From an uncultured Anaerolineaceae bacterium (GTDB lineage Bacteria > Chloroflexota > Anaerolineae > Anaerolineales > Villigracilaceae), in contig CAZASG010000002.1 of the NCBI GenBank assembly GCA_964487745.1, positions 46,360-110,359 on the forward strand: 64,000 bases of DNA, given 5' to 3'. The translations under genes were made by a program, and so were the position numbers. Below the pieces are notes generated by a model, which was not told the origin of the DNA, did not search any database, and was given only the letters and a program-made list of their open reading frames with translations. This document shows positions 7,066 through 50,663 of this stretch, piece after piece; position 1 is the first letter of the stretch; the number at the start of each line of letters is the position of its first letter.

Positions 7066-7066
7066 T

Positions 7067-8353: not shown

Positions 8354-8380
8354 CCCTTGCCCCTCTGCCCTATCGGGCAT

Positions 8381-8420
8381 CTCCCCCAAATGCGACAAAA
8401 AGATATCGAATTTGGGGGAG
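8381..8420 (+). promoter_or_regulatory. perfect 11-bp hairpin whose 3' arm contains the putative SD of the protease gene
   Basis: CTCCCCCAAAT (8381-8391) and ATTTGGGGGAG (8410-8420) are exact reverse complements with an 18-nt loop. GGGGGAG is the only SD-like element before the ATG at 8433. Confidence 0.4.
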
Positions 8421-8432
8421 AAAAATAACCCT

Positions 8433-8906
8433 ATGAAAAAAATCATCCTTATCGGCATCGGACAAAAATTACGTGGCGATGATGCTGTTGGTCCCGAGGT
8501 GGTTCAAGCGTGGGAACGACAATATTCTGAAAGCGCAAAGCATGTGCGCGTGGAGATCAGCCAACTCCCCGGCCTAGAGCTATTGGGCTTGTTCGGGGAT
8601 ACGGAAATCGCCATTTTGGTGGATGCCGTTCAAAGTGGGGGCGAAGCGGGTACGGTACACGTCACGGGGCTCGACCAAGTTGTTTCCTTTGGAGCAGGTT
8701 CCGGGTCCGTGCATGGCTTCGGCGTTGCAGAGACGTTGGCGCTCGGTCAACAGGTCGATCCCGACGCCATCCCGGAGAAAGTCATCATTATCGGCATCGA
8801 AGCGGGGAATATGGATTTGGGGAAACCGATCAGCGAAGCGGTACGAGCGAGCATCCCTGATGCGGTGAGGAAGATCGAAGAAATTATCCAGAAAGACAGG
8901 GATTAA
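8433..8906 (+). CDS. hydrogenase maturation endopeptidase (HycI/HoxW family)
   Basis: MKKIILIGIGQKLRGDDAVGPEVV matches the GxGxxxxxDDxxG protease N-terminus. The ORF-track start at 8412 is a TTG; the ATG at 8433 is preferred. Confidence 0.8.
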   Translation: MKKIILIGIGQKLRGDDAVGPEVVQAWERQYSESAKHVRVEISQLPGLELLGLFGDTEIAILVDAVQSGGEAGTVHVTGLDQVVSFGAGSGSVHGFGVAETLALGQQVDPDAIPEKVIIIGIEAGNMDLGKPISEAVRASIPDAVRKIEEIIQKDRD

Positions 8907-8951: not shown

Positions 8952-11900
8952 TTATTTGTGAATAACGATCGACCCTCCTTTGATGGCAACGCTTGGATCG
9001 GCGTCATCAGGCAAGGTTGGGTGATTATCGTAGACAATCACGCCTGTTGATGTATCCCAGATCTTAATGCGGAAGTAATCATCTCCATCGCCTGAGATCT
9101 TCCCGTCAATGACCGTGACAAAGAAACTGTATCCACTAGCATCATTGACCGTCCCGGTGCCCTGGAATTGTGCTCTTTCGCCAGAGACCACCAACCAATC
9201 GTAGGCTGTACTCTTGAAACGCAGATCGTTGACTTTGAAGTTCGTATTGCCAAAGGGCATCTTGGCGTCCATATGGTATTTAGCGTTGAAGCCAAAATTT
9301 GCTTTATCAGATGTTTCGGGGTCTGTGAACCAACCGCCGCCAGTGACAAAGCCACCTTCAGGATCAAAGACGACGACATATTGATAATATTCAGTCGCAA
9401 CGCCATCGTCATCATCAGTGACTATCAGTGTAAGCGTGTATACACCGGGCACAGCGTATTGATGTGCTCCTGTGAGATAGTAGCCGCTGACCACGCCCGC
9501 AGAGGATGTTCCATCACCCCAATCCCAGAGAGCGGTATGGGTATCTTCAACACCAGGATCAGTAAAGAAAGCATTGACATCAACCACTTCATCAACCTGA
9601 ACAGGGTCAATCGGTGCTGAGATCTCTGTGATCTGCGGCGCAACATTAAGGACTTCGATCTGAACCGTATCCGTATCAGACAGATCACCTGTATCGGTAA
9701 CCTGCAAACCTATGGTGTAAAGTCCGTTTTCGGTGAAGCTCCAGTCAACAGTAAGTCCGACTGCATCATCATACTCACCGTCATTATCCAGATCCCAGTT
9801 GTATGTCAACTCGTCATTGTCGGGATCGGATGAGCCGACTGCGTTCAGCGTAAATATTTCGCCCTCGTTGACAACCTGGTCGGCACCTGCATCGGCAATC
9901 GGTGGTGAATTCGTGAAGAAAGCCAACTCAAAGAGACTCAAACTGCTGATCTCAATGGTCAGCAGATTCGCCACCATATCACAGCTCGGGTTGACGACAC
10001 ATGAGGCAGTCATGATGACGCCGTCCTTAATGAGTAGCAAGTTTGCCTCTTCATAGGTAGTGCCGTCGATGATGCCGTCATCGTCTGCATCGTCCCAGCG
10101 TAGAGTCAGGAGAGCAGGCGGATCAAAGATCGTTCCTTCGGGTTGGATACTGTAACTCTGGATGACGAAAAGCTCGCCTTCAAAGTTGGTTACTTCGTAA
10201 CCTGCACCACTGTCTGTAATGGAGAAACTGATCTCATCAGAAAGCGCATTATCAGGAATATCGAGAGAAGCATTACCATCCAGAGTTTCAACGGTACCAC
10301 CATCTGAGCCAACCACACTTGCTCCTGAAGCGCCAGGATCGCAGGTGTCAGTATCATCATCCGGGCAGGGATCAAGGACATCGGCAACGCCATCGCCATC
10401 TACATCACGCTGATCGGGGTTATAGTCTTCAGGCGCATTATCGTCACCGTCGGCGATATGATCACCATCGGTATCAAAGTAAAGGGAAATGCTGCCGTCT
10501 GGGGCGATCACCTTGATAAAGTTGAACGTCAATGTTGGGGCAACGAAAACCCCATCTCCACGATCAACAAACTCTGCCGCGCCAACAGGAAGCATAGCAA
10601 CCAACTCCTGCCCTGAATCCAGATCAAGGTAAGTCGCGTTAAGGGTAAGATCACTGACCGTCTTATAACGGAATTGGCTGTTCCCCTCCCCAAAGGGATC
10701 CTGGCCAGAGTACCAGCGGTACACCCATTCAGTACCTGCATAGGCATCGATCTCCACATCATTTAGTGGCAGATCGCATTCGGCTTCGCCCTGCGGACAG
10801 GCACCAGCACCGGCATGGTCAACAATATGCACGGTTGTGTAAACATCATGCATAGCCGTAGCGCGCACAATATCGTACTGTAATTCAATATAGGGGTTCC
10901 CATGAGGCTGCGCCAGCGGGTCAAAATCAAAGAAAGTGGCCTCCGGGACACCATCAACATGATCCCAGAACTGAACCATAAGCGGAACACCGTTCTCATC
11001 CAGGAATTCCGCATTGGCACAGCCAATTGCCACCGAGGGGCCCGTAGCGGAGATAAAGCCATCCACAGGTCCCGGGGGCACCTTCTGCACTACAAACTCC
11101 CCATTCAGATCGGTGCAAACATGCCAGCTGTAGCGTTCGCCATTAAAGATCGGTCCATTAACCCAGACTTCAACATCGCTAAGCGGCTGTCCATCCAGAA
11201 GGACCGTGCCGCGAATTTCTCCTATGGGCGAGGCAACATACGTTTTATTCTCGCCGGCAAATTGGGCTACATCCAGAGCTGTGATGACTTCGATATCGAG
11301 GACATCCCATTCAAATTCTTCATCACCGGGGATGGCAAAATCCACCAACCAGTTTCCAGCCCCATCCGCCAGCGTGTGGCGGCGAATACCAAATTGCCAG
11401 GCTTCCACAAAGACATGGCTGCCGGGCGACGCCGTTCCACTGACCTGATCGTTTGCTGCGTCAAGAGTGCCAAGCTCAAGCTCGGTCGCAACGCTCTCTT
11501 TGGTGATCTCTCCATTGGAAACAACTGCGCGATAACCGGGCTGCATCTCGAACGCATCACCATAATAGAAAATCGCATGCGGGAAGTGGAAATCAGTTGC
11601 AAACCAGGCTTGCGCCACAACCTGGGGTTCCGGATTGTAGATGAGATTGTCATTCTGATCATAGATGTGCAGAGTCAACTCATCACCGATGTCCCAGAAG
11701 GGAGCCCAGATCAATTTTTCAGTGTAGGAAATGTTGACGAGTCCGCCCCCGCATTCCTGCCTGCTACCGTTATATCCAAGTGACCAACAACCCGAGTCAG
11801 CCTCTCGCACAGCCGTATCCCGCACAACTGCCGCCAACGCAGCACGATTGATAAGCAATTCACCACCCTGCAAGACCGCCGTTTCTTCGATGCGTTCAAG

Positions 11901-14900
11901 CAGCAAGCGTGCAGCATCATAATAAAGAACGGCAAAGTTGCTCGGCTCAAGTCCAAAGCGGGCGCCAAAGTCGTAATTCCAGGCCTGCACACTCTGCTGT
12001 CCACGTAGTTCATCGAGCCAATAGGCCGAATCATGGTCAAAATCAGAGAAGATCGTGCGATTAAAGACCGTTGGTCCATAAGCAGGCACTGTTTGCATTG
12101 TGGCAGAGCCGGAGAGCATCACAAGCCCGGCTTCTTCGTAGATCGGCGCACCGCCTTTGACGCTGCTCGAGCAAATATGCCCGATCACGCCCACTATGCT
12201 TGGGTCTTGAATAACCTGCAAGGCAGCCTGCTCGCCTGAAGCGAAATCACAGGCGCTGTCAAATTCGGTGAACTGGACATCAAATCCCTCAACGGGGCCG
12301 TGATCTTCAATAGCCATCTGCAAAGCACGGATGGCATCTTCACCGATGAAAGTCACTGGTCCTGTCAGATCGACGGCGGCTGCCAGATTAATGGTTTCGC
12401 CAGGCTGAACGACCACATCGGTCGTTGGCACAAAGCCTGCATCGGGCGAAGTCAAAATTGAGAAATCTACAATGGTCTGGTTACCATCTTCATCACGTTG
12501 TCTGGCGCTCCCCTCGCTGCCAACTTGCAGATCGAAGCCCCAGGCACCAAAATCTGCTTGCCAGGTGCCACCACTATCGGCAACAATGCTAAAGCCCACG
12601 CAATCGGAGAGGTCGTAGTTGTTGCATACATTAAGATCGATCTGTTCGTTCGGGGCAGATGTCCCTGAAACGGTATCAAGCCCAAGGTCCACGTTCGTGA
12701 TCGACAAGTCTGACACCGTGTACGTAGCTTCAGGGACTCCTTCCACGAAGATCGTGAAGCCAGGTTCAATATCCACCCTACCCGCCAACTCAAATCGGGC
12801 AATAGTCCCCACATCCGGATACATCCCTGAGAAGAATTCAGGCAGCGGCACGGATGTTCTGGTTTCAAAATAATCACCAACTTCCGGGGTTGCGGGATCG
12901 TCAATGATAATGCTGACTTCATCTCCAGCCCAGTTATATATCTCGACCACCTCGTTGCTCGGCATCGATTCGTCAGCAGCGTAAACGCCAATGGTCGGTG
13001 GCGCATAGGTCCACAGATCGTAGTAGGGAACCAGACCAAAACTGGACACAAATCTGGGGTTGACGTAATTAACCGTATCGTAGAAGAAGACAGGAATGAC
13101 GGCCACATCATCTTCCACCAATATTCGCTCAGCATCCTGCAAATAGGAGATACGCTGGGCAGTATCGGCTTCGCTGAGGCTAAGATCGATCAAGTTTCTG
13201 TATTGGGCGTTATCCCAACCTGTAAAGCTTCTATCCGAATCCGGGTGGAAGAGATCGTTGAGAATATTATTGGCATCAAAGTAATCGATCCGCCAGCCTA
13301 ACCTATATAGATGGTAGTCACAATTGGATGGGTTATCTTGACAACCATGCAGGTTGTCAAGATAGGCAGACCAATCTTCAAACTCTACCCGTACAGGGAT
13401 ATTGAGTATGGTACGCCACTGTTCAGCGACATATTCCATCGGCCCCTCATGTCCATTATTGGCATAAAGCACGATCTCAGGGAAACCTGCCCCGCCAGGA
13501 TAACCGGCATCGCTCAAATAGGTTTGTGCTTGAGCCGCATCAAAGGGGTGTCCAACGTTGCTGCCCTGATAGCTCGGGAAATCGGGAGAGATCACACCGG
13601 TGGCATCTTCACGCCAGGGCATATCGAGAACATTATCCAATAGATCGCGCCGATCAAATGCCGAAGCCAAAGCCTTTCTAACTAGCGGGTTATCCATCGG
13701 GGCTTTTCCAACATTCACACCGAAGTAATAGATACCCGGAGCAGGCGAGAGCACCCGATCAGAGAGCAAATCAGGGTTATTCTCCGTATTCGGCAGGACA
13801 TCGATGATCCCTTGGTGATAAGCGTCGACTTGAGTGCCAACGTCTCCTATCACAGAAAAACCGATCTGTTCAAAGGTCACATCACCAGCGTTATGGAAAG
13901 TTTGAGAACGTTCCATCAGCAAGTGCCCATCATCATGTTCGAGCAAGATATAGGGGCCATTCCCTACAAAGTTTTCGGGGTTTGTCCAACCATCCCCATA
14001 CTGAACGATCAAATCTTCACGCACAGGAACAATTCCCGGGCTCGCCAAGATCTGCGGGAAATAAGCCGCAGGACTATGGAGTGTGATCTGCAATATATGA
14101 TCACCCTGTGCCAGTAGCCCAACAGAACTCGGATCTGGATTCAAACCATCATAGAAATCCTGTGCCCCTGCGATCGGGAACAACAGGTATGCGTAATCAG
14201 TAGCAGTATCGGGTGCCAACATGCGCAAGAATCCATCCACAAAATGTTGTGCAAGAACTGGTGTGCCGTCATCCCAATAGGCGTCATCACGCAAGGTGAT
14301 GGTGTAAACCAGACCATCAAGTGAAAGTGAATGATCTATTGCGGCAGCATCAAACAGAGTACCGCTGTCGTCTATGCGGAAGAGCGGTTCCCAAAGCAAG
14401 TTGGAGATCGACCAGCTTTCATAGTCAAATCCGAGCCGATTTAGATCAGGGCTGTAGGGGATCGAAACAACCAGCGGCACTTCATCAGGGGCTTCCCAAA
14501 TGGAAGGCCCTTCACCCCAGTATTCCAGAGTGCCATCATCGCTGCCATCCGGATTCAATTGGATGGCACGCCCCCAATCCCCTTCCTGAATATCAGCCAA
14601 TTCCTGCTCAAAATCTTCGTCACCTACTTGTGAGTAATCTGCTACCCATAAACCGGCACCATCTGCCGTGACATAGCGTGCGTTCCCCTCCTGTGACCAA
14701 ATATTTACCGCCACACGTGAACCCGGGTCTGCGATGCCGCTGACCGTATCGTTCTCGTAATTAACTTCGTTTATCGTTAATTGTGAAACCAAGACCGTCT
14801 TGCTCGCAGTATCACCCGACATGGTCACATAATGACCGACTTGTAAGTCGAAGACACCGTTCAGGTCGAAGCAAGGGTTGCCACACCAGGGATCATCGTC

Positions 14901-17900
14901 CACGTTTCTGGTGTCTTCATACAATATGCCGTTGTTTGGATCGGTATCATCGTCAATTATCAGAGTAACATCACTTCCTTCTGGCCAATCGTGTCCATGC
15001 ACTTCGGGATGAGATGGAACAGCATGCAGGGTGTAGTTATATATCGTTATCCCGAACATGGTGCTGTCATTGTCTTCATCCCACTCACTTGAATCAACCC
15101 AGGAACCGGGCTGAATATCAAAAGTTTGATCTTCCCAATTTTGATCACCGGGGACACTGAAATCCGCCATCCAGTCGCCGTTGGAGTCGGCAAGCTCATC
15201 GCGATTGATACAATCAAACTCACCACATACCCAAACGCCGATCCAAGTATCTGGAGTAGCAACGCCATAGACCTGATCCGTATGAACATCGACATCTGTG
15301 ATCGCCATATTGGTCACAAGCAATTCTTTGGTTATATTTCCATCTGTGACCGTAACAAAATCGCCGACCTTGAGATCATAGGCATCCCAAAGTTCAAACT
15401 GGAACCAGGTCTGTTCCGGATTCCAATCGGCATATCCAACGGTTCTCGTGTCTGTATAATCCGGGTTCTCTGGTGTAGCAGGGTCATCGATCTCAAGGGT
15501 AACGACTACACCTTCATCCCAATCCCAACCTTCGATATTGTCATGATTCGCGCGTGCACCTATCGTAGGATTCATGATATGGATACCCGCCATGGTCGAA
15601 TCGCCATCTTCATCGTTTTGTGAAGAATCGATCCAGGTGCCGGGGACAATATCCCGGGTATCCTGCTCGTCATCTTCTATACCGGGATTGGCAAAATCAG
15701 CCGTCCATTGCCCGCCACCATCCGCATAGACGTGGCGATTTGTGCAGCCCTGATCGCCACATATCCAGATATCCACCCGACTGTCAGGATCGGCGGTACC
15801 ACTCACTATATCCGTATCCACATCCGCGTTATCCATCGTCAGACTGGTGACGGTGTGTACTTTCGTCACACTGCCATCGGAAGCCGTGACTACGTCGCCC
15901 GGTTTTATATCGTAGATATCCCATAATTGAAAATCCAAGGTGGTTTGGCTAGGGTCCCAGTGCGCTTCAATAACTTCTCCTGAAGCCGTATGATCGGGGG
16001 CCTCTGGCGTCGCAGGGTCATCAATCTCGATGTCGACAATTGCCCCAAGCTCCCATTCCCAACCTTCAATACGATCTTCTGCAGGTCGAATACCAAGCTG
16101 CGGATTGGCTATCTTCCAAAAGTATTGAGTGTCAGTGTTGTTTTCTCCGTGGATGATCAAGCCACCCTCGCTACCCAATTGAATATCAAAAGGTTGCTCA
16201 CAAAGAGGGTCGGAAACATTTATTGTCCAGTCACCGGTTCCTGAAACAGTTGTGGAACATCTCTCCCCTTGTCCTGTCCAAGTATATGCTTCTACTATTT
16301 CCCCAGGCGTTGCAGTACCTGTGAAAGTATCGGTTTCAGGATTAATATTGGTTACATCCAAATGATATACAACATGTTCTTTTGTTGTATTCCCGTCTGA
16401 GACAGTCACCAAATCGCCAGGCTGAATTTCGTATTGATCTCCCGGAGCAAACAGGGCGAATGTCTCATCACCATTGAGTACTTGATCCACCCAAGCAGAG
16501 GCTGAGTAATCAACTCCTACGCCATTATCCGGATCATCTATCGTAAGGGACAACTCAGCGCCAAAGGGCCAATAACTGCAATGGATTTCCTGATAGTTGA
16601 TAACAACCTGTACTTGAGGGTCTTCTGGAACCCACCAGAAATAGACCGTGCTATCACCGTCTGCATCCATCTGGCCTGCACCTCCACCAACTGAAGGGGC
16701 GAGATCGCAGGGGTTGAAATCAGCAGTCCAGTTTCCATTTTGATCTGCGATGATCTCAGAGTTACAGGAATGCTCTTCATGTAACCAAGCTTGTACTGCG
16801 GTTCCAGCTACCGCTGTCCCGCTGACTGTATTCAAATCCGCATTAATTTCGGTAACATTGAGATCGGTAATGAGCAATTCCTTGGTCGTTGTCGTACCAG
16901 TCACTGTTACAAAATGACCGGGTTGCAAATCGAAACTCCCTAGGCGAAATTCCTTAACGCCAACAGAGGGATTCCAATCTGCGGGGCCTACTTCACCACT
17001 ATCAGAATACAGAACCCCGTTGAGAGGATCAGTATCATCATCGATTGTTAGGTCAACTATTTCTCCAAAAGCCCAATCTCGGACATCAATCCAGTCTTCT
17101 TCAGAATCATTGGGATGTGCCCATACTTCGGGCTGCAATATCTGCCAATATTGTTGCGTGCAATCCCCGTCTTCATCACATTGATTGGCTTCACTACCCA
17201 TTCCTGGAGTTAGATCAAATGTATCCTGTTCGTCATCATCTTCGCCGGGAATGGAAAAATCTGCTTGCCAATCACCATTCACATCAGCAATCTCCCGGCG
17301 GAAGCCATAGCAGCCAGATTCATCACAATGGATGTGGCCGATATTCACTTCGGAACCGGGCTCTGCTGTCCCTGAAACGGTATCAGTTTCCGGATCAGCG
17401 TCTGTTACGATGAGTTGGGTAACGGTATGTATCTTCGTGACTGTCCCATCGGTCATCTCAACAATTTGTCCGGCTTGAAGAGTCCAGCTTTCATTAAATG
17501 AGAAGCGTACAAAAGTCTGGTTGGGATCCCAATCTGCAATCTCGACTGTCTGTATATCGGAGTAAGTGCCATCGATAGTCAAGGTAACCTCTGTACCATC
17601 CGACCACCCATAGCCATGTATTTCGTTTTCCTGTAAGCGCGCTGAGAATGATGGGTCGTATTCAGGGGAGGTATTCCAGTTTTCCAGCGTTAATCCTGCT
17701 GCTGCGACCATCTCACGTGCAAAACCATAATCCGCATCAACTGCTGAAGTTATCCCCTCCCAGCCGTACGAATCACCGCTGCCAACTGAATTCCACCAAT
17801 CACCTGTTTCAGCAAAGGACAATAGGGCAGTTTCGATTTGCGCGCGGCTAACAGATGGAAAATCAGGGCCGAAAGCAATACCATCATGTGGAATTTTCTC

Positions 17901-19481
17901 TGAGATCTCCAAAATACGGATAGCCTGAACTACATCTGGAACATCATTGCGAATAAGAGAACGCCCGTCCATAACGCGCCAATCACCGCAGAGAAGTTCT
18001 GTCCCGTCTGGCGTAGTCTCACAAGAGTCAACGAGTTCAGCGGGAATATCAGGCTCATCGCCGGGCTGCCAGGCAGGGTCGGTGAGCGGAGGGCTAAAAA
18101 ATGTGGTTGCAAAATCAACGTCACCATTATAAAGAGCCATGACAGCCTGAGGATGACTTCCGGCTTCAATGACATCTGCAGGAGTAGCATTAGCATTATT
18201 GAGCATGACCATCGGAGCCATATATCCTGATGCAGACATGTAATCAGGAATCCCCCATACCTTTTCATTCAATTCACTTACGGTTTGAATACCACTATTG
18301 CGCGGAACAAGAATTTCACCCCAGTAACCATCCCATCCAAAGCGAACGGCTTTTAAAGATGCCTGCAAACCACAATGATCACTTCCTAGTACATAACCAA
18401 AGCTCGGCATAAAGCCAATAGAGGTATCAGGATTCTGGCAAACCGCATAGACCGTTTCCGAGAATGAAGCAGGGATAACAACTTCGAAATTCAAACCCGT
18501 CTCTTGATATAAATAATCGGCCATGACCTGGCCGCCATCAAGAAGAACTTGTTCATCTATACTTGGATAAAAATACAGCCGGACAGGATTTTCTGGTGTA
18601 CCCACTTCTTGCGGGGGCATACACCCATCTGCTCGATAAATATTTCCTTCATCGTAGGCAGTAACATATAAACTGTTCTGAGAATCAAATGCTAATCCGC
18701 GAGGCCGACTGATCCCATATAGACACACGGAAATTGCTTGGTCAACAGCATCAATCTTGAGCACTTTATTAGCATCCATCGCTGAGTAATATAAATTTCC
18801 ATCGACGTCCATAGCTAGCCCACCATCAGTCCACGCGCCGGTGGCTGCATAAAGACTCATATCCCAGGTCGTTAGATCAATACTATACACATCGCCATTC
18901 ATATCTGAAACGAAGAATCTATTATTCGCTTCATCCATCACGATCGCTTCGGGGGTATTGAGACCTGTGGCAACATACATCTCCAGCAAAGTGCCTGTCG
19001 AGTCAAATTTTGATACAAAGCCTCCGGCGCTCACTGCATACAAGTTATCCGCGCTATCGAAGGCAATCGCATTAGGATTCTGAAGCCCGATGCTCGTGTC
19101 TACAAATGTAGAGGGAAACCCCAAACCATCCAGTTTAAATACCCGGTTTGTATCATCTGAAACAAAGAGTTCCCACATACTATTAAAAGCTACCCCCGAT
19201 ACGCCATTGTAATATCCAGATGAAAAAGAGCTTACGCTCCCATCTGGAATGATTTTTGCCACCCAGTCGCCTCCTCCACCTGCTCCTTCGTTGGCAACAA
19301 AGAGATTCCCTGAAGGATCAAACGCTAATCCAAATGGACCCGACAGACCAGATGCAAAAAGTTCAGGGCTAACTGACTGCGCCTGAACTTCTGCCAAGGG
19401 GATTGATATGGTATTGAGCAACAATGCAAAAAAAACAACGATCCGCCAAATTGAGTTACCAAAGGTATTAATTTTATTCAT
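8952..19481 (-). CDS. giant exported mosaic protein (3,509 aa): NHL propeller, three solute-binding-protein folds, 8 novel repeat modules, CarboxypepD_reg-like, TSP3-like, 2x PKD, and a C-terminal beta-rich domain
   Basis: One uninterrupted ORF. Start set at MNKINTF... (ATG at 19481) because GGGAGGG lies 6 nt upstream and a signal peptide follows (WRIVVFFALLLNTISIPLAEVQA/QS). See the domain sub-features. Confidence 0.85.
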   Translation of the reverse strand: MNKINTFGNSIWRIVVFFALLLNTISIPLAEVQAQSVSPELFASGLSGPFGLAFDPSGNLFVANEGAGGGGDWVAKIIPDGSVSSFSSGYYNGVSGVAFNSMWELFVSDDTNRVFKLDGLGFPSTFVDTSIGLQNPNAIAFDSADNLYAVSAGGFVSKFDSTGTLLEMYVATGLNTPEAIVMDEANNRFFVSDMNGDVYSIDLTTWDMSLYAATGAWTDGGLAMDVDGNLYYSAMDANKVLKIDAVDQAISVCLYGISRPRGLAFDSQNSLYVTAYDEGNIYRADGCMPPQEVGTPENPVRLYFYPSIDEQVLLDGGQVMADYLYQETGLNFEVVIPASFSETVYAVCQNPDTSIGFMPSFGYVLGSDHCGLQASLKAVRFGWDGYWGEILVPRNSGIQTVSELNEKVWGIPDYMSASGYMAPMVMLNNANATPADVIEAGSHPQAVMALYNGDVDFATTFFSPPLTDPAWQPGDEPDIPAELVDSCETTPDGTELLCGDWRVMDGRSLIRNDVPDVVQAIRILEISEKIPHDGIAFGPDFPSVSRAQIETALLSFAETGDWWNSVGSGDSYGWEGITSAVDADYGFAREMVAAAGLTLENWNTSPEYDPSFSARLQENEIHGYGWSDGTEVTLTIDGTYSDIQTVEIADWDPNQTFVRFSFNESWTLQAGQIVEMTDGTVTKIHTVTQLIVTDADPETDTVSGTAEPGSEVNIGHIHCDESGCYGFRREIADVNGDWQADFSIPGEDDDEQDTFDLTPGMGSEANQCDEDGDCTQQYWQILQPEVWAHPNDSEEDWIDVRDWAFGEIVDLTIDDDTDPLNGVLYSDSGEVGPADWNPSVGVKEFRLGSFDLQPGHFVTVTGTTTTKELLITDLNVTEINADLNTVSGTAVAGTAVQAWLHEEHSCNSEIIADQNGNWTADFNPCDLAPSVGGGAGQMDADGDSTVYFWWVPEDPQVQVVINYQEIHCSYWPFGAELSLTIDDPDNGVGVDYSASAWVDQVLNGDETFALFAPGDQYEIQPGDLVTVSDGNTTKEHVVYHLDVTNINPETDTFTGTATPGEIVEAYTWTGQGERCSTTVSGTGDWTINVSDPLCEQPFDIQLGSEGGLIIHGENNTDTQYFWKIANPQLGIRPAEDRIEGWEWELGAIVDIEIDDPATPEAPDHTASGEVIEAHWDPSQTTLDFQLWDIYDIKPGDVVTASDGSVTKVHTVTSLTMDNADVDTDIVSGTADPDSRVDIWICGDQGCTNRHVYADGGGQWTADFANPGIEDDEQDTRDIVPGTWIDSSQNDEDGDSTMAGIHIMNPTIGARANHDNIEGWDWDEGVVVTLEIDDPATPENPDYTDTRTVGYADWNPEQTWFQFELWDAYDLKVGDFVTVTDGNITKELLVTNMAITDVDVHTDQVYGVATPDTWIGVWVCGEFDCINRDELADSNGDWMADFSVPGDQNWEDQTFDIQPGSWVDSSEWDEDNDSTMFGITIYNYTLHAVPSHPEVHGHDWPEGSDVTLIIDDDTDPNNGILYEDTRNVDDDPWCGNPCFDLNGVFDLQVGHYVTMSGDTASKTVLVSQLTINEVNYENDTVSGIADPGSRVAVNIWSQEGNARYVTADGAGLWVADYSQVGDEDFEQELADIQEGDWGRAIQLNPDGSDDGTLEYWGEGPSIWEAPDEVPLVVSIPYSPDLNRLGFDYESWSISNLLWEPLFRIDDSGTLFDAAAIDHSLSLDGLVYTITLRDDAYWDDGTPVLAQHFVDGFLRMLAPDTATDYAYLLFPIAGAQDFYDGLNPDPSSVGLLAQGDHILQITLHSPAAYFPQILASPGIVPVREDLIVQYGDGWTNPENFVGNGPYILLEHDDGHLLMERSQTFHNAGDVTFEQIGFSVIGDVGTQVDAYHQGIIDVLPNTENNPDLLSDRVLSPAPGIYYFGVNVGKAPMDNPLVRKALASAFDRRDLLDNVLDMPWREDATGVISPDFPSYQGSNVGHPFDAAQAQTYLSDAGYPGGAGFPEIVLYANNGHEGPMEYVAEQWRTILNIPVRVEFEDWSAYLDNLHGCQDNPSNCDYHLYRLGWRIDYFDANNILNDLFHPDSDRSFTGWDNAQYRNLIDLSLSEADTAQRISYLQDAERILVEDDVAVIPVFFYDTVNYVNPRFVSSFGLVPYYDLWTYAPPTIGVYAADESMPSNEVVEIYNWAGDEVSIIIDDPATPEVGDYFETRTSVPLPEFFSGMYPDVGTIARFELAGRVDIEPGFTIFVEGVPEATYTVSDLSITNVDLGLDTVSGTSAPNEQIDLNVCNNYDLSDCVGFSIVADSGGTWQADFGAWGFDLQVGSEGSARQRDEDGNQTIVDFSILTSPDAGFVPTTDVVVQPGETINLAAAVDLTGPVTFIGEDAIRALQMAIEDHGPVEGFDVQFTEFDSACDFASGEQAALQVIQDPSIVGVIGHICSSSVKGGAPIYEEAGLVMLSGSATMQTVPAYGPTVFNRTIFSDFDHDSAYWLDELRGQQSVQAWNYDFGARFGLEPSNFAVLYYDAARLLLERIEETAVLQGGELLINRAALAAVVRDTAVREADSGCWSLGYNGSRQECGGGLVNISYTEKLIWAPFWDIGDELTLHIYDQNDNLIYNPEPQVVAQAWFATDFHFPHAIFYYGDAFEMQPGYRAVVSNGEITKESVATELELGTLDAANDQVSGTASPGSHVFVEAWQFGIRRHTLADGAGNWLVDFAIPGDEEFEWDVLDIEVITALDVAQFAGENKTYVASPIGEIRGTVLLDGQPLSDVEVWVNGPIFNGERYSWHVCTDLNGEFVVQKVPPGPVDGFISATGPSVAIGCANAEFLDENGVPLMVQFWDHVDGVPEATFFDFDPLAQPHGNPYIELQYDIVRATAMHDVYTTVHIVDHAGAGACPQGEAECDLPLNDVEIDAYAGTEWVYRWYSGQDPFGEGNSQFRYKTVSDLTLNATYLDLDSGQELVAMLPVGAAEFVDRGDGVFVAPTLTFNFIKVIAPDGSISLYFDTDGDHIADGDDNAPEDYNPDQRDVDGDGVADVLDPCPDDDTDTCDPGASGASVVGSDGGTVETLDGNASLDIPDNALSDEISFSITDSGAGYEVTNFEGELFVIQSYSIQPEGTIFDPPALLTLRWDDADDDGIIDGTTYEEANLLLIKDGVIMTASCVVNPSCDMVANLLTIEISSLSLFELAFFTNSPPIADAGADQVVNEGEIFTLNAVGSSDPDNDELTYNWDLDNDGEYDDAVGLTVDWSFTENGLYTIGLQVTDTGDLSDTDTVQIEVLNVAPQITEISAPIDPVQVDEVVDVNAFFTDPGVEDTHTALWDWGDGTSSAGVVSGYYLTGAHQYAVPGVYTLTLIVTDDDDGVATEYYQYVVVFDPEGGFVTGGGWFTDPETSDKANFGFNAKYHMDAKMPFGNTNFKVNDLRFKSTAYDWLVVSGERAQFQGTGTVNDASGYSFFVTVIDGKISGDGDDYFRIKIWDTSTGVIVYDNHPTLPDDADPSVAIKGGSIVIHK
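9369..9911 (-). other. two PKD-type Ig-like domains
   Basis: NSPPIADAGADQVVNEGEIFTLNAVGSSDPDNDELTYNWDLDNDGEYDD...YTIGLQVTDTGDLSDTDTVQIEV and ...THTALWDWGDGTSS...GAHQYAVPGVYTLTLIVTDDDDG. Confidence 0.7.
10338..10475 (-). other. thrombospondin type-3-like Ca-binding Asp repeats
   Basis: DTDGDHIADGDDNAPEDYNPDQRDVDGDGVADVLDPCPDDDTDTCD. Confidence 0.6.
11034..11228 (-). other. carboxypeptidase-regulatory-like (CarboxypepD_reg-type) beta-sandwich
   Basis: GEIRGTVLLDGQPLSDVEVWVNG...CTDLNGEFVVQKVPPGPVDGFISA. Confidence 0.45.
11289..11732 (-). repeat. eighth (shorter, divergent) copy of the repeat module
   Basis: LTLHIYDQNDN...EMQPGYRAVVSNGEITKESVATELELGTLDAANDQVSGTASPGSHVFVEAW...LADGAGNWLVDFAIPGDEEFEWD. 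Confidence 0.55.
11754..12428 (-). other. LivK-like (type-1 periplasmic binding, Peripla_BP_6-like) domain, apparently lacking much of one lobe
   Basis: INLAAAVDLTGPVTFIGEDAIRALQMAIEDHGPVEGFDVQFTEFDSACDFASGEQAALQVIQDPSIVGVIGHICSSSVKGGAPIYEEAGLVMLSGSAT. The segment is only about 225 aa, against about 340 aa in free LivK-type SBPs. Confidence 0.5.
12456..12992 (-). repeat. seventh copy of the repeat module
   Basis: IIIDDPATPEVGDY...DIEPGFTIFVEG...TVSDLSITNVDLGLDTVSGTSAPNEQIDLNVC...DCVGFSIVADSGGTWQADF...RQRDEDGNQT. Confidence 0.7.
12999..14486 (-). other. family-5 (peptide/nickel/oligosaccharide type) solute-binding domain of the giant protein
   Basis: NLLWEPLFRIDDSGTLFDAAAIDHSLSLDGLVYTITLRDDAYWDDGTPVLAQHFVDGF...GNGPYILLEHDDG...YFGVNVGKAPMDNPLVRKALASAFDRRDLL...LYRLGWRIDYFDANNIL matches the SBP_bac_5 pattern over about 490 aa. 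Confidence 0.6.
14508..17630 (-). repeat. six tandem copies of a ~165-180-aa coding repeat module (period about 500-540 nt)
   Basis: Recurrent blocks ...IDDP.TP...W.P.QT...PGD.VT.TDG..TK..VT.L..T..D..TD.VSGTA.P.S.V..W.C...GC..R...AD..G.W.ADF..PG..D.EQDT.D..PG.W...Q.DEDGDST. Copies 4 and 5 (15576-16109 and 15039-15575) are the most similar. Confidence 0.8.
17679..18593 (-). other. PhnD-like (phosphonate/type-2 periplasmic binding) domain of the giant protein
   Basis: VRLYFYPS...ADYLYQETGLNFEVVIPASFSETVYAVCQNPDTSIGFMPSFGYVLG...ILVPRNSGIQTVSELNEKVWGIPDYMSASGYMAP...GSHPQAVMALYNGDVDFA follows the PhnD family pattern. Confidence 0.55.
18624..19376 (-). other. six-bladed NHL/SGL-type beta-propeller region of the giant protein
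   Basis: Six recurrences of the blade pattern, e.g. GPFGLAFDPSGNLFVAN, NPNAIAFDSADNLYAVS, GGLAMDVDGNLYYSA, RPRGLAFDSQNSLYVTA. Confidence 0.6.
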
Positions 19482-19504
19482 TTTGTCCCTCCCATGGACA
19501 TTTA

Positions 19505-19534
19505 ATATAAAAACCGACCACAAAGGGCCGGTTT
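19505..19534 (-). terminator. terminator-like hairpin plus U-run inside the leader of the giant gene (possible attenuator)
   Basis: The minus strand reads AAACCGGCC-CTTTGT-GGTCGGTTT followed by TTATATT. This is a 9-bp stem with one G-U pair, ending about 25 nt before the ATG at 19481. Confidence 0.35.
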
Positions 19535-19689
19535 CGCTATTGGCTCCCCGATAGTCATGTAGCGACCAGATAAAACTATCGGATTATCACCTCCCGAATT
19601 TCAGAAGCTTATAGGCTACGAAGAAGGCTGCATTGTTCAATTTGATATTTTTTGCCCCCAATGCCATGTATAAAAACAGAAGCTTATAC

Positions 19690-19822: not shown

Positions 19823-19848
19823 GGAATTGTCGGTTGGACGACAATCCC
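19823..19848 (-). terminator. rho-independent terminator after the small exported-peptide gene
   Basis: The minus strand reads GGGATTGTCG-TCCAAC-CGACAATTCC followed by TTTTTCTT (10-bp stem, one mismatch). Confidence 0.6.
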
Positions 19849-20020: not shown

Positions 20021-20245
20021 CTACGGACCATTTGGCCCTTGAGCCGGACCGTCGCTGCCGCCAGCGCCGGGGTTGTTGATTGACCAACCAGGGGGTTCAC
20101 CGTCAATACCTCCGGCTGCCCATCCTGGGGGCTCGCCATCGCCTGTATTATTCCCTGCATCGCCACCGCCATTGAAGGCAAAGACCGGTGCCGCTGTTGC
20201 AAGCAACAAGAACAGGACGACCACTACAATCAGCAATTTCTTCAT
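20021..20245 (-). CDS. small exported Gly/Pro/Asn/Asp-rich protein with duplicated GEPPGW motif
   Basis: 74 aa. It has a clear signal peptide (MKKLLIVVVVLFLLLATAAPVFA/FN). The mature part, GGGDAGNNTGDGEPPGWAAGGIDGEPPGWSINNPGAGGSDGPAQGPNGP, has no Cys. An AGGAAAGGA SD lies upstream and the gene has its own terminator downstream. Confidence 0.5.
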   Translation of the reverse strand: MKKLLIVVVVLFLLLATAAPVFAFNGGGDAGNNTGDGEPPGWAAGGIDGEPPGWSINNPGAGGSDGPAQGPNGP

Positions 20246-20362
20246 TTCAAATCCTTTCCTTTCTTCTTTTTATAAAAGATCCATTCTGTAATCTTTCTTG
20301 AAAGATATTATCAATGGCTGAGCGCCAATGATCTAATCAGCGCCCAGCCTCTGGTCATCTGC

Positions 20363-23300
20363 TTATTGTGAGCCCTGGTTTGCTTTGAATTGATAGGGCA
20401 TGATCCGGCGGAACCAGATATCGCTGCTGCCATTGCCTTCCTGCAACCAGGTTGAATAGAAGCGAGTCCCATCGGGGGTCATGCGCAGTTGCGCTTCACC
20501 CTGCTCTTCATCGCCCTTGGCGAGCGCTGCCCAGCGTGTGACCACTTCACCAGCATAATTCCCATCACTGTCAGGGTTTACTTCCCAAGTGGAAAATTGG
20601 TAGCTATTCCCTCTGTTTTGGGTGAAGGTGTAGTACAGGTCCAATGGAGCCGGCATCTCCGGTACCACTGTGCTGTCACCATGTTCGATTGGTGGATTGG
20701 TCGACGTGCCGTAGCTTACGTAGAAGACATTCTTGTTCTGCTTGTCTTCAGCCCTCCCGGTCCAGACACCATTTACCTTGATTGTTCCAGGAGCTGCAAC
20801 GATACGTGGCTCGATCACGGTTTCCTTGTTATTAGCCAGTTGGGACATATTCCGCATCTGCTCAAATTCTCCCGGCCCGTATTGATTACAGATCTCTGTT
20901 TTCTCTTTTGTGAGCGGATCGGTGAAGGTGTCGCAGGTCTCATAAACTTCATTCGGATCCATGGTCGGATCAGTGGTCCATGTCTGACCTCCATCAAACG
21001 AGCGCCGGATAAAGAGGTCATACTTATCATTGCCATTCCGTGCAGCTGCCCAGTTGGGTGTATAGGTGAAGCCCATCACTATAAAGTCACCGCGGATTTG
21101 GCCGCGATGCGCACGGGAATCATCGTAAGGATTGGCAGACGAGGAATCATTCAGGTTGCCCGGTCCCTGTTGCCACTTCACCACTTTGACAGCACCGTAT
21201 GGATCTTCAGCAATTGGATCGCCCATCGAGGGCGTTACTTCCGTCGGCGTGACTGAGCTCATATTCTGAACACCAGCGACACAAACTTCTTCTCCATTAG
21301 CCGCAGTCTCCCACGCATCGCAGACAAAATTCTCAAAAGCATAGGGGTTACCCTTAGATGAAGCAACAACGCGGCGCAGCATGGTGTCCGCTTGATGTCC
21401 TTTGCCCTCCTGTCCTTCCCTGTAGAGAACTAGCATGACCGTTCTTGAATCCCCTATCGCACCCTTGCCCTGCATAACGAAGCGCGGGCGACGGGCATTT
21501 TCGTAGGCTAGCTGCGGCCGTCCCAGGTAGTCCAGAAGTTGTTCGCCAGTTTCAGGATTTATTATGTAGACCAGATTCCCGTTTTCGTCGCGCTCAGGCA
21601 AGTTCATGATATTGCCTGCACTGACCACTTCAGGATTCTGGAAATCAAAGCTGTGGTAGATGGCGTTCTTGCCCACATCTGGAGATTCATCGTCACCATA
21701 GGGGCCACCATCGGGCACATGGCCTGGGTCACCGAGACCTACGCCCTTGGTTTCTTCGTATGCCATGATCGCCCATGCGCTCTTGGTACCATCTGGCTTG
21801 GTATAAGCTTGCAGGAAGACATTCGGGCGTGATGCGCCGGTGTCCCCGTCGAGCAACCTGCCATCTTCAGTTATACAAACGCGCTTCAAAGCACCTTGAT
21901 TATTGGTGAACTCATAAAAGTTCTCACACAAACCAGGGACTTTATAGGCATAGTTATGTGCGCCTGTGGAATCATCCTCTGTTGCAGGGATATAAGGGTA
22001 GCCTTCATAAGGATAGTAAGCTTCAATTTCATCCTTCCAGATAGCTCCTTTGCTATTGCACTCTGCCACTTTGGCATTTATATCAAGGCCTGGCATAACT
22101 GGAATAACACGGTCACGAGGCACCACATTGTTGTAGTGGCAACTTACACAATCGGCATTTGTAAAGCCTCCCAAGTATTCGGGAATCGTCGCGTCCACCA
22201 CCACAAGCGGTATCGGAGCCCCTTGAGTGGGAGTGTGGATATCATGTGGCTCCAAGCCAAATGGTACATGGCAATTTGTGCAATTCTTCGTTGAAAGATG
22301 GTCAGCTGGCAATGTGGAAGGCAAAGCATGATAGGTAGCAGCTTCTGTGGAATCACGCTCTACAATCGTCTCGCCACCTTCAAACTTAACACAACTTGTC
22401 AGATTCTCAGCTTCGTAAGAGATGGCAGATGTATCAGATGTTGAGCTAACATTATCTGTTGGGATAAACTCACCATTCTCATCCAGAACGGGATAACCAT
22501 CCTCATCCAGCTCTACCTTCATATTATCGGTATTAACCGCAGCATTGTCTGTGATACGCACCGGCATCGCCATCGGCACAAGTGCTTTCGGGCGTCCGGT
22601 AACATCGAGTTCATGTTGAGGATCTCCACCGGAGACAAAGTTCGCATCGATCTTGCTGAAATTCGACATGGTAATGTAGCTATACCAGATATCGGTCTTG
22701 TGATTGGTTGTTGCGCCGCCCCACCCAGGTCCGGGTCCAGCAGCCTCACCGGGGCGCAGCCCCTCCGGGTCTTCTTGCCAGGTAATAGCAAACCCGGCGC
22801 CATCTGCAGCACCTATAAATATCTGATTGGCATCACGCCGTCCGGATGTTAAACGTTCAGGCTTGAACCAGACAATATCGCCAACAACTTTGTCTGCCCA
22901 GTAGCCACCACTATTGATCATCTTATCAGTAACAACAGTGCCGCGCGCCACCCAAACACAGCTGTAGGGGATTTCACCAACTTCAGGGAAACCAATATCG
23001 GTGTAGTCGATAGACCGTTGCGGTCCGCCAACACCCCAGGTGTCACCTTCATAGTAGGCATCATCGTAGGGATAATCATCATCTGGATCGATCGCGTATC
23101 TGGGCTTGCCACCGTTACAGAATTTGCTTGTCCATGCCACCAAAATATTGTTCCCCTTAACCTGGAAGACAGGCTTCTTCGCCTGACCAAAATATTCCAT
23201 ACCATTTTCCAAGGTGAAGGATGTACGGTCTGCTGCACGGGACAAATTCATGCGCTTAAAGGTATACCCATCATCACGTGAAATACCAGCAAAGATATCC

Positions 23301-25621: not shown

Positions 25622-25736
25622 TGCATTCTCCTCTCGTTCAAACATGGGCCTGTTTAAAGTCGGTAAATAATTATGAAAAGACTGCCTCCTCTCATTTGAA
25701 AAAAAATTCAATCTTTGTTCATTTTTTATATATATT

Positions 25737-26120
25737 TCATTCGATCAGACTATTTTCGATCTCCTTCTTTACTTGATTTTTGAAAGCAATTTCGTCGCTA
25801 ACAAAATCGCATAATTCTTGCATTGAGCCGCTGGGCTCACATTTGCAGTGGTACAAAAAGACCAGTTTATTTGCCAAGTCAATCGCTAAATGCGATACTT
25901 CCGCTTGCTCGCTGATAATCGTAAAAATAGGAGCGGTACCGTTCCGGCTCAATTCATAAATAATCAAATCAGGTTTGATGGATAATAGATATTCATCCAC
26001 GTCATAGATATTTGCGTTGACTCGTGTCACAATAGATTTTCTATGTGCTAAAAGACTCTCCGCCACACCATCCATAAATACCGAGTTTCCTAACAGAAGC
26101 ACGTGTGGATCAACTGACAT
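25737..26120 (-). CDS. hypothetical 127-aa protein with weak receiver-domain-like pattern
   Basis: AGGAGA SD lies upstream. HVLLLGNSVFMDGVAESLL...KPDLIIYELSRNG...IFTIISEQ resembles the beta1-alpha1...beta3 layout of CheY-like receivers but lacks the acidic pocket and the phospho-Asp. AT-rich. Confidence 0.45.
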   Translation of the reverse strand: MSVDPHVLLLGNSVFMDGVAESLLAHRKSIVTRVNANIYDVDEYLLSIKPDLIIYELSRNGTAPIFTIISEQAEVSHLAIDLANKLVFLYHCKCEPSGSMQELCDFVSDEIAFKNQVKKEIENSLIE

Positions 26121-26338
26121 ACCACTCTCCTGTCTACAAGCTTTTATTAATTACTTCTAATATAAGTATAGAGAGCAGCGAGAGGCTTTTCTATTACCCC
26201 ACCCCTCATTTAGGCATGATAAAAGAGCCATCTTTACACTCTTTTAGGATTAGTCCCTCTTAGAGGAGGGACTACCCCCAAAAAAGAAAAAAACCCAATA
26301 AGGGCTTTTGGATTTCAAATTTAGAAACGAGCCTTAGC

Positions 26339-26992
26339 TTAAATAAGCCCTTCCTTTTTGGCGTATAAAACCGCTTCCTGACGTTTTTCAAGGTGAAGCT
26401 TTGTTAAAATTTTTCGCATGTGGCTTTTTACAGTATGGATACTCAAATTAAGGGTCTGTGCGATTTCCTTGTTGGTCTGCCCCGCTGCAACATGCTCCAA
26501 GACTTCTTGCTCGCGTGCCGTCAAGGTGGCGGGGTTGGTAATGGACGTATCTATTGCATGCTTGCTGATCCGTCGGAACTCTGCCAACATGCGCCCCCCC
26601 AATGTTCGCGTAATGGCTGCTTCATCACGCATTGCCCCTCGCAAAGAGGCAAGCAACTCACGCGAGCTGACATTCTTAAGCAGGTAGCCTTGCGCTCCAT
26701 TTCGGATCGCTTCAAAAACATTTTCGTTTTCATCGTTGACTGTGAGCATGACGATGGTAACATCCGGTAATTCTTTTTTTATACGCTGGGTTGCTTCCAA
26801 GCCATCACAAACCGGCATTGTGACATCCATTAAAATCAGGTCCGGAGATAATTCTTCAGCTTTAACAATGGCCTCCAAGCCATCCGCTGCTTCTCCCACT
26901 ACTTCAAAATCAGGTTGCCCTGCCAAAATATTCACCAGCCCTTCACGAAAAAGCAGGTGATCATCGACGAGTAATACACGTGTTTTAGACAT
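26339..26992 (-). CDS. NarL/FixJ-family response regulator (receiver + LuxR-type HTH)
   Basis: MSKTRVLLVDDHLLFREGL...PDLILMDVTMPVCDG..., with a C-terminal LTAREQEVLEHVAAGQTNKEIAQTLNLSIHTVKSHMRKIL. The start overlaps the kinase stop by 8 nt. The upstream extension in the ORF track is rejected. Confidence 0.85.
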   Translation of the reverse strand: MSKTRVLLVDDHLLFREGLVNILAGQPDFEVVGEAADGLEAIVKAEELSPDLILMDVTMPVCDGLEATQRIKKELPDVTIVMLTVNDENENVFEAIRNGAQGYLLKNVSSRELLASLRGAMRDEAAITRTLGGRMLAEFRRISKHAIDTSITNPATLTAREQEVLEHVAAGQTNKEIAQTLNLSIHTVKSHMRKILTKLHLEKRQEAVLYAKKEGLI

Positions 26993-50627: not shown

Positions 50628-50631
50628 AATG

Positions 50632-50663
50632 AAAAACAGCCCATCAAATGATGGGCTGTTTTT
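50632..50663 (+). terminator. rho-independent terminator
   Basis: ACAGCCCATC-AAAT-GATGGGCTGT (10-bp perfect stem), flanked by AAAA and TTTT. Confidence 0.7.

Follow-up and report, generated by a model that had tools for sequence, protein, structure and literature searches.

Solute-binding proteins (SBPs) are the textbook single-domain partners of ATP-binding cassette (ABC) importers. Two such domains share a polypeptide in GlnPQ, where two substrate-binding domains are fused to the permease, and in BvgS, which carries two Venus flytrap (VFT) domains; in each case the domains are of one class and sit on a membrane transporter or kinase. In Clostridioides difficile, class II cyclic di-GMP (c-di-GMP) riboswitches act as transcriptional ON switches before adhesins and pili (PMC11477304). 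Here we describe a gene on a 64,000-nt stretch of DNA from an uncultured Anaerolineaceae bacterium (contig CAZASG010000002.1, positions 46,360 to 110,359; hereafter the window), which encodes a 3,509-residue protein with SBP folds strung along a stalk of Ig-like modules and is preceded by a c-di-GMP-II-type leader. The interpretation that we narrowly favour is a giant secreted adhesin-like scaffold, made at high c-di-GMP, in which SBP folds have been recruited as ligand-binding heads.

The gene lies in one uninterrupted frame, as do the genes of its relatives P0001 and P0002. Its longest reading starts at a TTG at 19523, and the ATG at 19481 is preceded by GGGAGGG. Read by eye, the N terminus (MNKINTFGNSIWR-IVVFFALLLNTISIPL-AEVQA, with Q after the predicted cleavage) combines a K/R n-region with a 16-residue hydrophobic core. 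The original prediction, made from the letters of this DNA, of an uninterrupted open reading frame (ORF) with a Shine–Dalgarno (SD) sequence and a signal peptide was therefore borne out. Its composition is strongly acidic (D 11.1%, K 1.1%), and an exact-sequence look-up returned no record identical to it. From the N terminus it comprises an NHL propeller, a PhnD-like SBP, six modules, a family-5 SBP, a module, a LivJ-like unit, a module, a stretch that is weakly matched or unassigned, TSP3-like loops, two PKD domains and a post-COAP-1 domain (Table 1).

Two of the SBP units are complete. Phosphonate-bd matches residues 304–585 over profile positions 3–242 of 242 (104 bits), and the same unit matches HtxB and ArrX, aligns an SASG loop with the TSG anion loop of HtxB and contains a Cys-bearing insertion of ~45 residues that is kept in relatives. 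The family-5 unit matches SBP_bac_5 at residues 1717–2081 (profile 10–364 of 368, 193.5 bits) and the NCBIfam OppA model (positions 65–520 of 543) over residues 1692–2143, with OppAIV of Borrelia as its best solved relative (4gl8, 203 bits). In the alignment, its GWRIDYFD coincides with the GWxxDYxDP motif of OppA homologues, and GWxxDYxD is kept in 18 SBP5 copies of the family at 42–62% identity; we take the Asp of this motif to be the residue with which OppA holds the peptide amino terminus. Judged by these alignments, the PhnD-like and OppA-like units appear to keep both lobes and their signature ligand-site motifs. The head in front of them, residues ~40–300, aligns over its whole length with the sensor propeller of PknD (1rwi, E 1.4e-15) and also with Pizza6 designs (E ~1e-21). 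All three domains had been proposed from the sequence, and the profile and PDB searches recovered each of them.

The third SBP-like unit had been taken for a shortened LivK-like SBP. Its similarity to LivJ stands, but it is a single lobe I rather than a shortened bilobal protein. Peripla_BP_6 matches residues 2363–2473 over profile positions 1–112 of 343 only, residues 2–140 alone of LivJ (1z15) align to it, and 229 residues separate the flanking modules. An AlphaFold model built on the alignment of its database homologues (pLDDT 77.9, pTM 0.79) shows a single beta-alpha-beta lobe with helices behind it and no second beta-sheet; Foldseek comparison with LivJ/LivK types gives TM scores of ~0.6 when query-normalised and ~0.4 when target-normalised, with 32% identity to 1usg over 112 alignment columns. 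The two lobes of LivJ/LivK class-I binding proteins are thus not both present, and on this model the unit, termed mini-LivJ below, would be a conserved one-lobe derivative without the core of lobe II. With a single lobe it could not clamp a ligand between lobes, as a Venus flytrap does. The ~230-residue form also occurs in P0001, P0002, P0032, P0048 and the giant ORFs of loci L007 and L008; P0007 and P0131 hold a full-length LivJ version. A database search with mini-LivJ found 25 proteins, mostly of ~245–290 residues, with 71–97% of the domain aligned. The free-standing homologues (P0179–P0201) have hydrophobic, signal-like N termini and share invariant Cys, Trp and SGS-T positions, and they appear to form an undescribed minimal derivative of class-I binding proteins. 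Because the one-lobe form is conserved and exists as a free secreted protein, mini-LivJ is probably under selection for some function of its own.

Self-comparison recovers the predicted 6+1+1 arrangement of eight stalk modules, each of ~175 residues and 31–50% identical to one another. The AlphaFold2 model of a module contains two consecutive beta-sandwiches and is confidently folded (pLDDT 95.6, pTM 0.87). Its best Foldseek matches in the PDB are the Bap C region, MpIBP, SiiE and the tetra-tandem extender from a 'large adhesion protein' (6xi3); the entries matched also include 5irb, 2yn3 and 7dm0, and S-layer proteins rank far below these adhesin extenders. The near-invariant acidic motifs DDP and DEDGD suggest that their aspartates may form inter-domain calcium sites. 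Pfam gives only weak Big_6 matches, so the module has no Pfam model of its own.

Behind the last module, the proposed CarboxypepD_reg-like domain is unproven, since its score of 18.5 bits falls under the cut-off of 32.3, and the TSP3-like loops were recovered weakly (thrombospondin-2, E 0.0017). A PDB sequence search of residues 2745–3200 returned nothing beyond that weak match, and Omp28_seleno matches part of the region 9912–10484. The two predicted PKD domains (PKD_4, 92 bits) and the C-terminal beta domain were both found, the latter as post-COAP-1 (NF041523, 43.8 bits against a cut-off of 40, residues 3378–3476), a model that carries no function and a domain for which our literature searches found no paper. 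We considered post-COAP-1 as a C-terminal sorting signal and ruled this out: it is internal in P0006 and P0007 and is therefore a domain. The chain ends in ...AIKGGSIVIHK, neither an LPXTG motif nor a hydrophobic tail, in agreement with the forecast that no obvious C-terminal anchor (LPXTG or transmembrane segment) would be present. HemolysinCabind/RTX has no match in the protein, and no type I secretion system (T1SS) genes were found in the window.

The most informative feature of the locus, absent from the original prediction, is the leader. The sole RNA in an Rfam scan of the window is a c-di-GMP-II-GAG element (RF03169, c-di-GMP-II clan CL00127) at 19517–19603 on the minus strand, 36 nt 5′ of the ATG. 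Against a gathering score of 40 bits, RF03169 yields 40.7 bits here, 42.0 bits in L001 and 40.4 bits in L003, and the canonical c-di-GMP-II model (RF01786) gives 49.0 bits in a 1-kb search (E 1.6e-9; gathering score 53.5). A covariance model built from eight leader sequences (R1) scores the window leader at 106.7 bits. Among these eight sequences, eight pairs of the main helix show compensatory changes. As in class II, a loop GGUCGCU can pair with a downstream AGCGA(AA)CC to form a pseudoknot, and L009b carries a paired change in it, with U>A on the loop side matched by A>U on the tail side.

The position of the aptamer is conserved as well. It stands at the same place before P0001 and P0002, and sub-threshold c-di-GMP-II matches lie 20–45 nt before the giant ORFs of L007, L008 and L009, with a further one before a 1,353-residue gene upstream in L009. 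R1 locates the aptamer before P0004 in L005 (50.7 bits, outside the training set) and twice in L004. The aptamer precedes the P0005 giant ORF and the adjoining gene for a 1,347-residue beta-helix/PKD protein. Altogether it is present in seven of the eight distinct SBP-bearing giant genes with readable upstream DNA. In the window, the R1 search found no aptamer before the gene for the 1,756-residue choice-of-anchor O protein.

A metagenome scan with a pattern of the 22 invariant 3′ bases of the aptamer found at least 120 loci, and all 80 that were tested matched the aptamer (76 over the whole model, 4 cut by contig ends). In 79 distinct aptamers, 93.6% of cells are paired, compared with 81% in shuffles and 25–53% in slid controls, and helix 2, the main helix, has double changes at 10 of 10 pairs; only helices 1 and 2 count as evidence here, because the alignment (A7) was fitted to the model and helix 3 is fixed by the search pattern. 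We consider the leader to represent a probable divergent subclass of c-di-GMP-II-type riboswitch in Chloroflexota, with c-di-GMP as its putative ligand. Two arrangements among the metagenomic loci stand apart. At L010 4167–4284 a full aptamer and the usual SD are followed by a 16-codon ORF only, which is either a leader peptide or the remnant of a decayed target gene. L017, L025, L042, L109, L111 and L127 each have two aptamers ~1.1–1.2 kb apart, each before a protein of ~250–320 residues with a hydrophobic N-terminal segment.

Just 3′ of the aptamer lies a terminator-like hairpin, AACCGGCC with GGYCGGUU (−13.3 kcal/mol, z −3.6), which occurs in eight of eight family leaders; in L005 it is longer (AGCGAAACCGGCC / GGUGGUUUCGCU) and runs into a clear U-tract, AUUUUUGUUU. 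Its 5′ strand is the very sequence that forms the aptamer pseudoknot and the 3′ strand of P1, so the ligand-bound aptamer should prevent the hairpin, and the element would be an ON switch if the hairpin terminates transcription. On binding of the ligand, the pseudoknot and P1 would sequester the hairpin 5′ strand and transcription would read through; the protein would therefore be made at high c-di-GMP, that is, in a sessile, aggregating or biofilm state. The conserved hairpin that holds the SD changes in the L009 leaders from GUCC:GGAC to GUUCC:GGAAC. A promoter scan found no sigma-70-like promoter for the leader. Because a further terminator-like hairpin (19826–19845) separates the leader from the upstream genes, the giant gene probably forms its own transcription unit.

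The genes behind the metagenomic aptamers comprise 102 non-redundant ORFs, most of them with signal-peptide-like N termini. Pfam was run on 73, many of which have no match. The classes found are OmpR-type regulators (8), secreted Type I phosphodiesterases/nucleotide pyrophosphatases (4), multicopper oxidases (4), Glu/Leu dehydrogenases (3), TSP3 proteins (3) and NusG-like proteins (2), with single cases of an M6 peptidase, an S8 peptidase, a 5′-nucleotidase and a UDP-glucose dehydrogenase. Further module giants follow the aptamer in L050 (2,594 residues; LamG-PKD-TSP3 plus nine modules) and L123. By analogy, this heterogeneous, secretion-rich set looks like a c-di-GMP riboswitch regulon, and from their family assignments it would include enzymes whose products match the ligand classes of the SBPs.

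The giant protein is not unique; it is one member of a large metagenomic family with four SBP classes in shuffled combinations. Among 1.84 billion proteins, the module profile matched 3,667 representative proteins at E <= 0.001, of which 1,031 reached E <= 1e-30. We scanned 158 module proteins, the best 150 of the 3,667 matches plus relatives found earlier, with narrow local hidden Markov models for PhnD, SBP5, LivJ and Bmp. At least one SBP class is present in at least 38 of the 158 and two or more in at least 14, lower bounds because many of the scanned proteins are fragments; P0033 has three SBP5 units. P0001 (96% identical) and P0002 (74% identical; found on 14 contigs, with JGI and NCBI among the sources) share the domain order of the window protein, which P0032 also keeps. 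Distant relatives, with 36–41% identity over the shared parts, combine these modules and the NHL head with different sets of SBPs: Bmp and SBP_bac_5 in P0004 and P0005, Bmp and PhnD in P0006, a full LivJ and PhnD in P0007, PhnD and mini-LivJ in P0003, and Bmp and mini-LivJ in L007 and L008. Every named source of the family is a member of Chloroflexota/Anaerolineales. A genome scan with a single peptide pattern found at least four loci, a lower bound on the spread. Database names of the relatives are automatic labels ('PhnD/SsuA/transferrin family' or 'BMP family' SBP). As the original prediction had supposed for this layout, Pfam, NCBIfam, PDB and literature searches gave no characterised relative or family description.

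Comparison of the closest loci points to exchange of whole domains. Identity to P0001 is 89–100% in all segments except the head, where P0001 has Laminin_G_3 (LamG) in place of the NHL propeller and the junction falls cleanly where the PhnD unit begins (the heads compared were window 18594–19376, NHL, and residues 1–268 of P0001/P0002, Laminin_G_3). Against P0002, the PhnD unit is 96% identical, the SBP5 unit 61% between flanks of 92–96%, and modules 1, 3 and 5 are 43–66% identical; six modules precede SBP5 here and seven do so in P0002. These differences look like recent cassette recombination, and exchange of cassettes between close relatives is a usual trait of surface proteins that are exposed. 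The 96% and 74% versions of the locus also occur on different contigs of one assembly, GCA_046766155.1 (L002 and L003), and since both are present this bin probably mixes two related strains or species.

The neighbourhood of the gene gives no sign of a transport function. No ABC permease or ATPase was found within ~10 kb of the giant gene in the window, as had been predicted, or in L001–L008. The giant genes are instead flanked by genes for large surface proteins whose domains are of the cadherin-like, Big_9, beta-helix, PKD or choice-of-anchor O type. In P0001 and P0002 the locus runs kinase, regulator, 127-residue ORF, ~1,750-residue protein, small peptide, giant gene and a convergent [NiFe]-hydrogenase cluster; this synteny and the shared domain order show that the architecture is conserved in relatives. 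The histidine kinase–response regulator (HK–RR) pair is confined to close relatives and is absent near P0004, P0005, P0007, L007 and L008. A Liv-type cluster at 34–40 kb of the window has its own full-length Peripla_BP_6 SBP with a lipoprotein-type N terminus (LLAAC); this SBP was identified by profile, and its permease and ATPase genes by the sizes and N termini of their ORFs. A link between the giant protein and this importer, 15 kb away, was rejected, as mini-LivJ has no detectable similarity to the importer SBP; the original prediction had likewise seen no evident link.

Several features of the window lie beside this subject. A second choice-of-anchor O paralogue (29879–33850, plus strand; 1,323 residues) and the 1,756-residue protein flank the HK–RR genes; NCBIfam scores the 1,756-residue protein at 599 bits and the 1,323-residue one at 671 bits, they have few or no Pfam matches, and both appear to be secreted. 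The 74-residue peptide gene is called at the same place and strand in L002 and L003, with an 89-residue call on the opposite strand instead in L001. The hydrogenase cluster (3817–8906, plus strand), convergent with the giant gene, comprises genes for a cNMP-binding protein, a 4Fe-4S protein, an FAD/NAD-binding subunit, the [NiFe] small subunit (Oxidored_q6), the large subunit (NiFeSe_Hases) and a HycI-type maturation protease, a composition that looks like the soluble bidirectional type. Two paralogues 1 kb apart (547–1593 and 2529–3629, minus strand) belong to the IF-2B family (eIF-2B/MtnA-like) by synteny with L001/L003, and the ORFs between them vary (464 residues in L001, 192 in L003, two short ORFs here). 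A stretch at 50001–52000 with a GC content of 0.39, against ~0.50 elsewhere, holds a 209-residue ORF without a Pfam match and a 355-residue LCM-type methyltransferase, adjoins a 1,076-residue AAA/TPR/BTAD regulator and may have been acquired horizontally.

Table 1 Features of the giant gene, its leader and its upstream neighbours in the window
Feature	Coordinates	Strand	Basis or remark
Giant ORF, 3,509 aa	8952..19481	minus	uninterrupted frame; intact in P0001 and P0002
Sec-type signal peptide, aa 1-35, predicted cleavage VQA/Q	19377..19481	minus	read from translation
Six-bladed NHL beta-propeller head, aa ~36-296	18594..19376	minus	PDB search
PhnD/HtxB-like class-II SBP domain, aa 297-612, both lobes	17646..18593	minus	Phosphonate-bd
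Six tandem ~175-aa stalk modules, aa 612-1668	14478..17648	minus	two Ig-like sandwiches each
OppA-type family-5 SBP domain, complete, aa 1668-2172	12966..14480	minus	SBP_bac_5, OppA model
Stalk module 7, aa 2170-2352	12426..12974	minus	self-comparison
One-lobe LivJ-like domain (mini-LivJ), aa 2352-2580: lobe I and C-terminal helices	11742..12428	minus	
Stalk module 8, aa 2580-2745	11247..11744	minus	self-comparison
Weak CarboxypepD_reg-like stretch and ~170 aa unassigned, aa 2745-3000	10482..11249	minus	conserved in P0001, P0002
TSP3-like Asp-rich calcium loops, aa ~3000-3060, and unassigned ~130-aa domain	9912..10484	minus	weak
Two PKD domains, aa 3190-3375	9357..9914	minus	PKD_4, two stretches, 92 bits
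Post-COAP-1 beta domain, aa 3375-3509	8955..9359	minus	NF041523
c-di-GMP-II-clan riboswitch leader, aptamer and overlapping 3′ hairpin	19509..19610	minus	Rfam RF03169, RF01786
Terminator-like hairpin GAAACCGGCC/GGUCGGUUUU, then U-rich tail	19510..19535	minus	putative expression platform
Small conserved hairpin GUCC...GGAC holding the GGGAGGG SD	19482..19502	minus	read from sequence
Terminator-like hairpin, T-runs on both strands	19826..19845	either	scan lists plus; minus read by eye
Upstream conserved neighbours	20021..29489	minus	same order in L001-L003
74-aa secreted Gly/Pro/Asn-rich peptide (repeated GEPPGW)	20021-20245	minus	signal peptide; matches no family
Choice-of-anchor O protein, 1,756 aa	20363-25633	minus	NCBIfam; syntenic with giant gene in L001-L003
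NarL/LuxR-type response regulator	26339-26992	minus	127-aa ORF in same neighbour group
GAF histidine kinase	26985-29489	minus	

We propose that the protein is exported by the Sec pathway and acts at the cell surface or in the matrix, with the general build of the repetitive bacterial adhesins. Its stalk would be formed by the eight double-Ig modules, probably stiffened by calcium, and would carry interchangeable heads (NHL, PhnD-like, OppA-like, one-lobe LivJ-like and PKD). The SBP folds, which would serve no adjacent ABC importer, may have been recruited for binding outside the cell, where they would retain ligands that are small or oligomeric, for example peptide ends, amino-acid-like groups and groups of the phosphoryl or phosphonate type. 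Of the two functions in the original prediction, the riboswitch and the adhesin-extender fold favour the ligand-capture scaffold, in a sessile or biofilm state, over the constitutive sheath or S-layer and over a link to the Liv importer.

Several observations weigh against this proposal. The protein has no LPXTG, C-terminal transmembrane segment, RTX/T1SS signal or S-layer homology domain, which leaves its retention at the surface unexplained. The aptamer scores under the canonical RF01786 gathering score and barely above that of the GAG variant RF03169, a variant for which our literature searches found no ligand. No aptamer was found by R1 upstream of the family member P0007 (L006). In several loci the hairpin is followed by a weak U-tract, and it went unflagged in the terminator scan. 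Moreover, all the SBP classes present bind nutrients, which fits nutrient capture at least as well as adhesion, and on this evidence adhesion or matrix cross-linking is not distinguishable from retention of nutrients.

Nutrient capture is accordingly the rival that we take most seriously, while still judging it unlikely: the protein would be a fishing line whose SBPs capture peptides, phosph(on)ates and amino acids (and nucleosides, for the Bmp units of relatives) around the filament in a biofilm, and captured nutrients may pass to ABC importers encoded elsewhere, alongside secreted hydrolases. The four SBP classes of the family are nutrient binders, the PhnD-like and OppA-like units appear to keep their binding-site motifs, and the same riboswitch subclass precedes the four secreted nucleotide pyrophosphatases/phosphodiesterases, the 5′-nucleotidase and the M6 and S8 peptidases. 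However, no permease lies near any family member examined, and docking to one would be hard for units placed mid-chain on a stalk of tens of nanometres (assuming ~4 nm per Ig domain). The one-lobe LivJ-like unit cannot close on a ligand, and the Liv SBP of the window, full-length and with a lipoprotein-type N terminus, is unrelated and encoded beside its own transporter genes. A wider version of this idea, to which we give slightly less credence still, is that Anaerolineales-type Chloroflexota switch on an extracellular nutrient-harvesting apparatus in the c-di-GMP-high sessile state, in which hydrolases and SBP-headed giants, co-regulated by a single riboswitch subclass, act together. Nucleotide pyrophosphatases, 5′-nucleotidase and peptidases would release peptides, phosph(on)ates, nucleosides and amino acids, and OppA-, PhnD-, Bmp- and LivJ-type heads would keep these by the filament or pass them to importers.

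That the protein is a structural sheath, S-layer or matrix component with SBP folds as inert spacers or oligomerisation modules seems distinctly improbable. The lost lobe of the LivJ-like unit would suit such a role, as would the acidic composition with TSP3 and acidic motifs typical of calcium-crosslinked matrix proteins and the adjoining genes for surface proteins (choice-of-anchor O); yet the two complete SBPs appear to keep both lobes and signature motifs across 42–62% identity, the conserved and free secreted one-lobe form is probably under selection, S-layer proteins match the module far less well than adhesin extenders, and a wall layer made constitutively would not be expected under riboswitch control. 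Reuse of SBP folds as sensor domains is widespread, and the HK–RR pair is conserved upstream in the three closest loci, so an extracellular sensor scaffold might detect solutes and relay this to the neighbouring GAF kinase and NarL-type regulator, much as VFT domains do in BvgS-type kinases. We regard this as very improbable, for the giant protein has no transmembrane or signalling domain, the HK–RR synteny is limited to close relatives and a terminator-like hairpin lies between the units. Least credible of all is an assembly artefact or a decaying pseudogene stitched from repeats. Eight similar modules could mislead short-read assemblers, and module counts do differ among relatives, but the 10.5-kb frame is uninterrupted and modules of 31–50% identity are not collapsible repeats. 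An assembly chimera is likewise unlikely because P0001 and P0002 share domain order and flanking genes, and the order recurs on the 14 contigs of P0002 from several sources and in P0032.

An adhesin-like scaffold of this kind would place up to three SBP classes in one secreted giant under second-messenger control with no transporter nearby, a combination that recurs in dozens of relatives. If the heads still bind ligands, the SBP fold would have a new role outside the cell, whether in adhesion or in biofilm nutrient retention. If the harvesting version is true, ABC-type binding proteins would serve as covalently arrayed, transporter-independent capture modules, and mini-LivJ would be a new minimal binding-protein family. 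The hosts are widespread, poorly understood filamentous bacteria of sediments and anaerobic digesters. The locus offers several leads: a divergent riboswitch subclass with a recognisable secreted downstream set, an unmodelled but confidently folded double-Ig module and the conserved mini-LivJ. Each SBP unit is a compact domain that could be expressed alone for ligand screening.

Among known systems, the giant adhesins (Bap of Staphylococcus, SiiE of Salmonella, MpIBP of Marinomonas and the 6xi3 extender) resemble the window protein in their very large size, tandem Ig-like stalk, acidic inter-domain motifs and inserted or terminal ligand-binding domains. The window protein differs in its Sec signal peptide and in having no RTX repeats, T1SS signal, N-terminal retention module or LPXTG. 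It therefore shares the Ig-like extenders of the RTX adhesins (LapA, SiiE, MpIBP) without their RTX/T1SS export features, and lacks the LPXTG of sortase-anchored Bap-type proteins; its cargo of ABC-type SBP folds was not found described for these adhesins, and its host belongs to Chloroflexota. Clostridioides difficile CD2831 and CD3246 likewise have a class II-type aptamer in the 5′ untranslated region of a secreted adhesive protein, where it is a transcriptional ON switch (PMC11477304), and the hairpin overlapping the 3′ strand of the window aptamer implies the same logic, although the window aptamer is of a divergent subclass and the regulated proteins are unrelated in sequence and not sortase substrates. 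The bilobal fold of ABC-importer SBPs (OppA, PhnD/HtxB, LivJ) is found in two of the three window units and not in the LivJ-like one, and all three differ from importer SBPs in being embedded mid-chain between Ig modules, with three classes in one polypeptide and no cognate permease or ATPase nearby. As in GlnPQ and BvgS, more than one SBP-fold domain shares a polypeptide, but the window protein mixes classes and carries them on a stalk that is soluble and adhesin-like.

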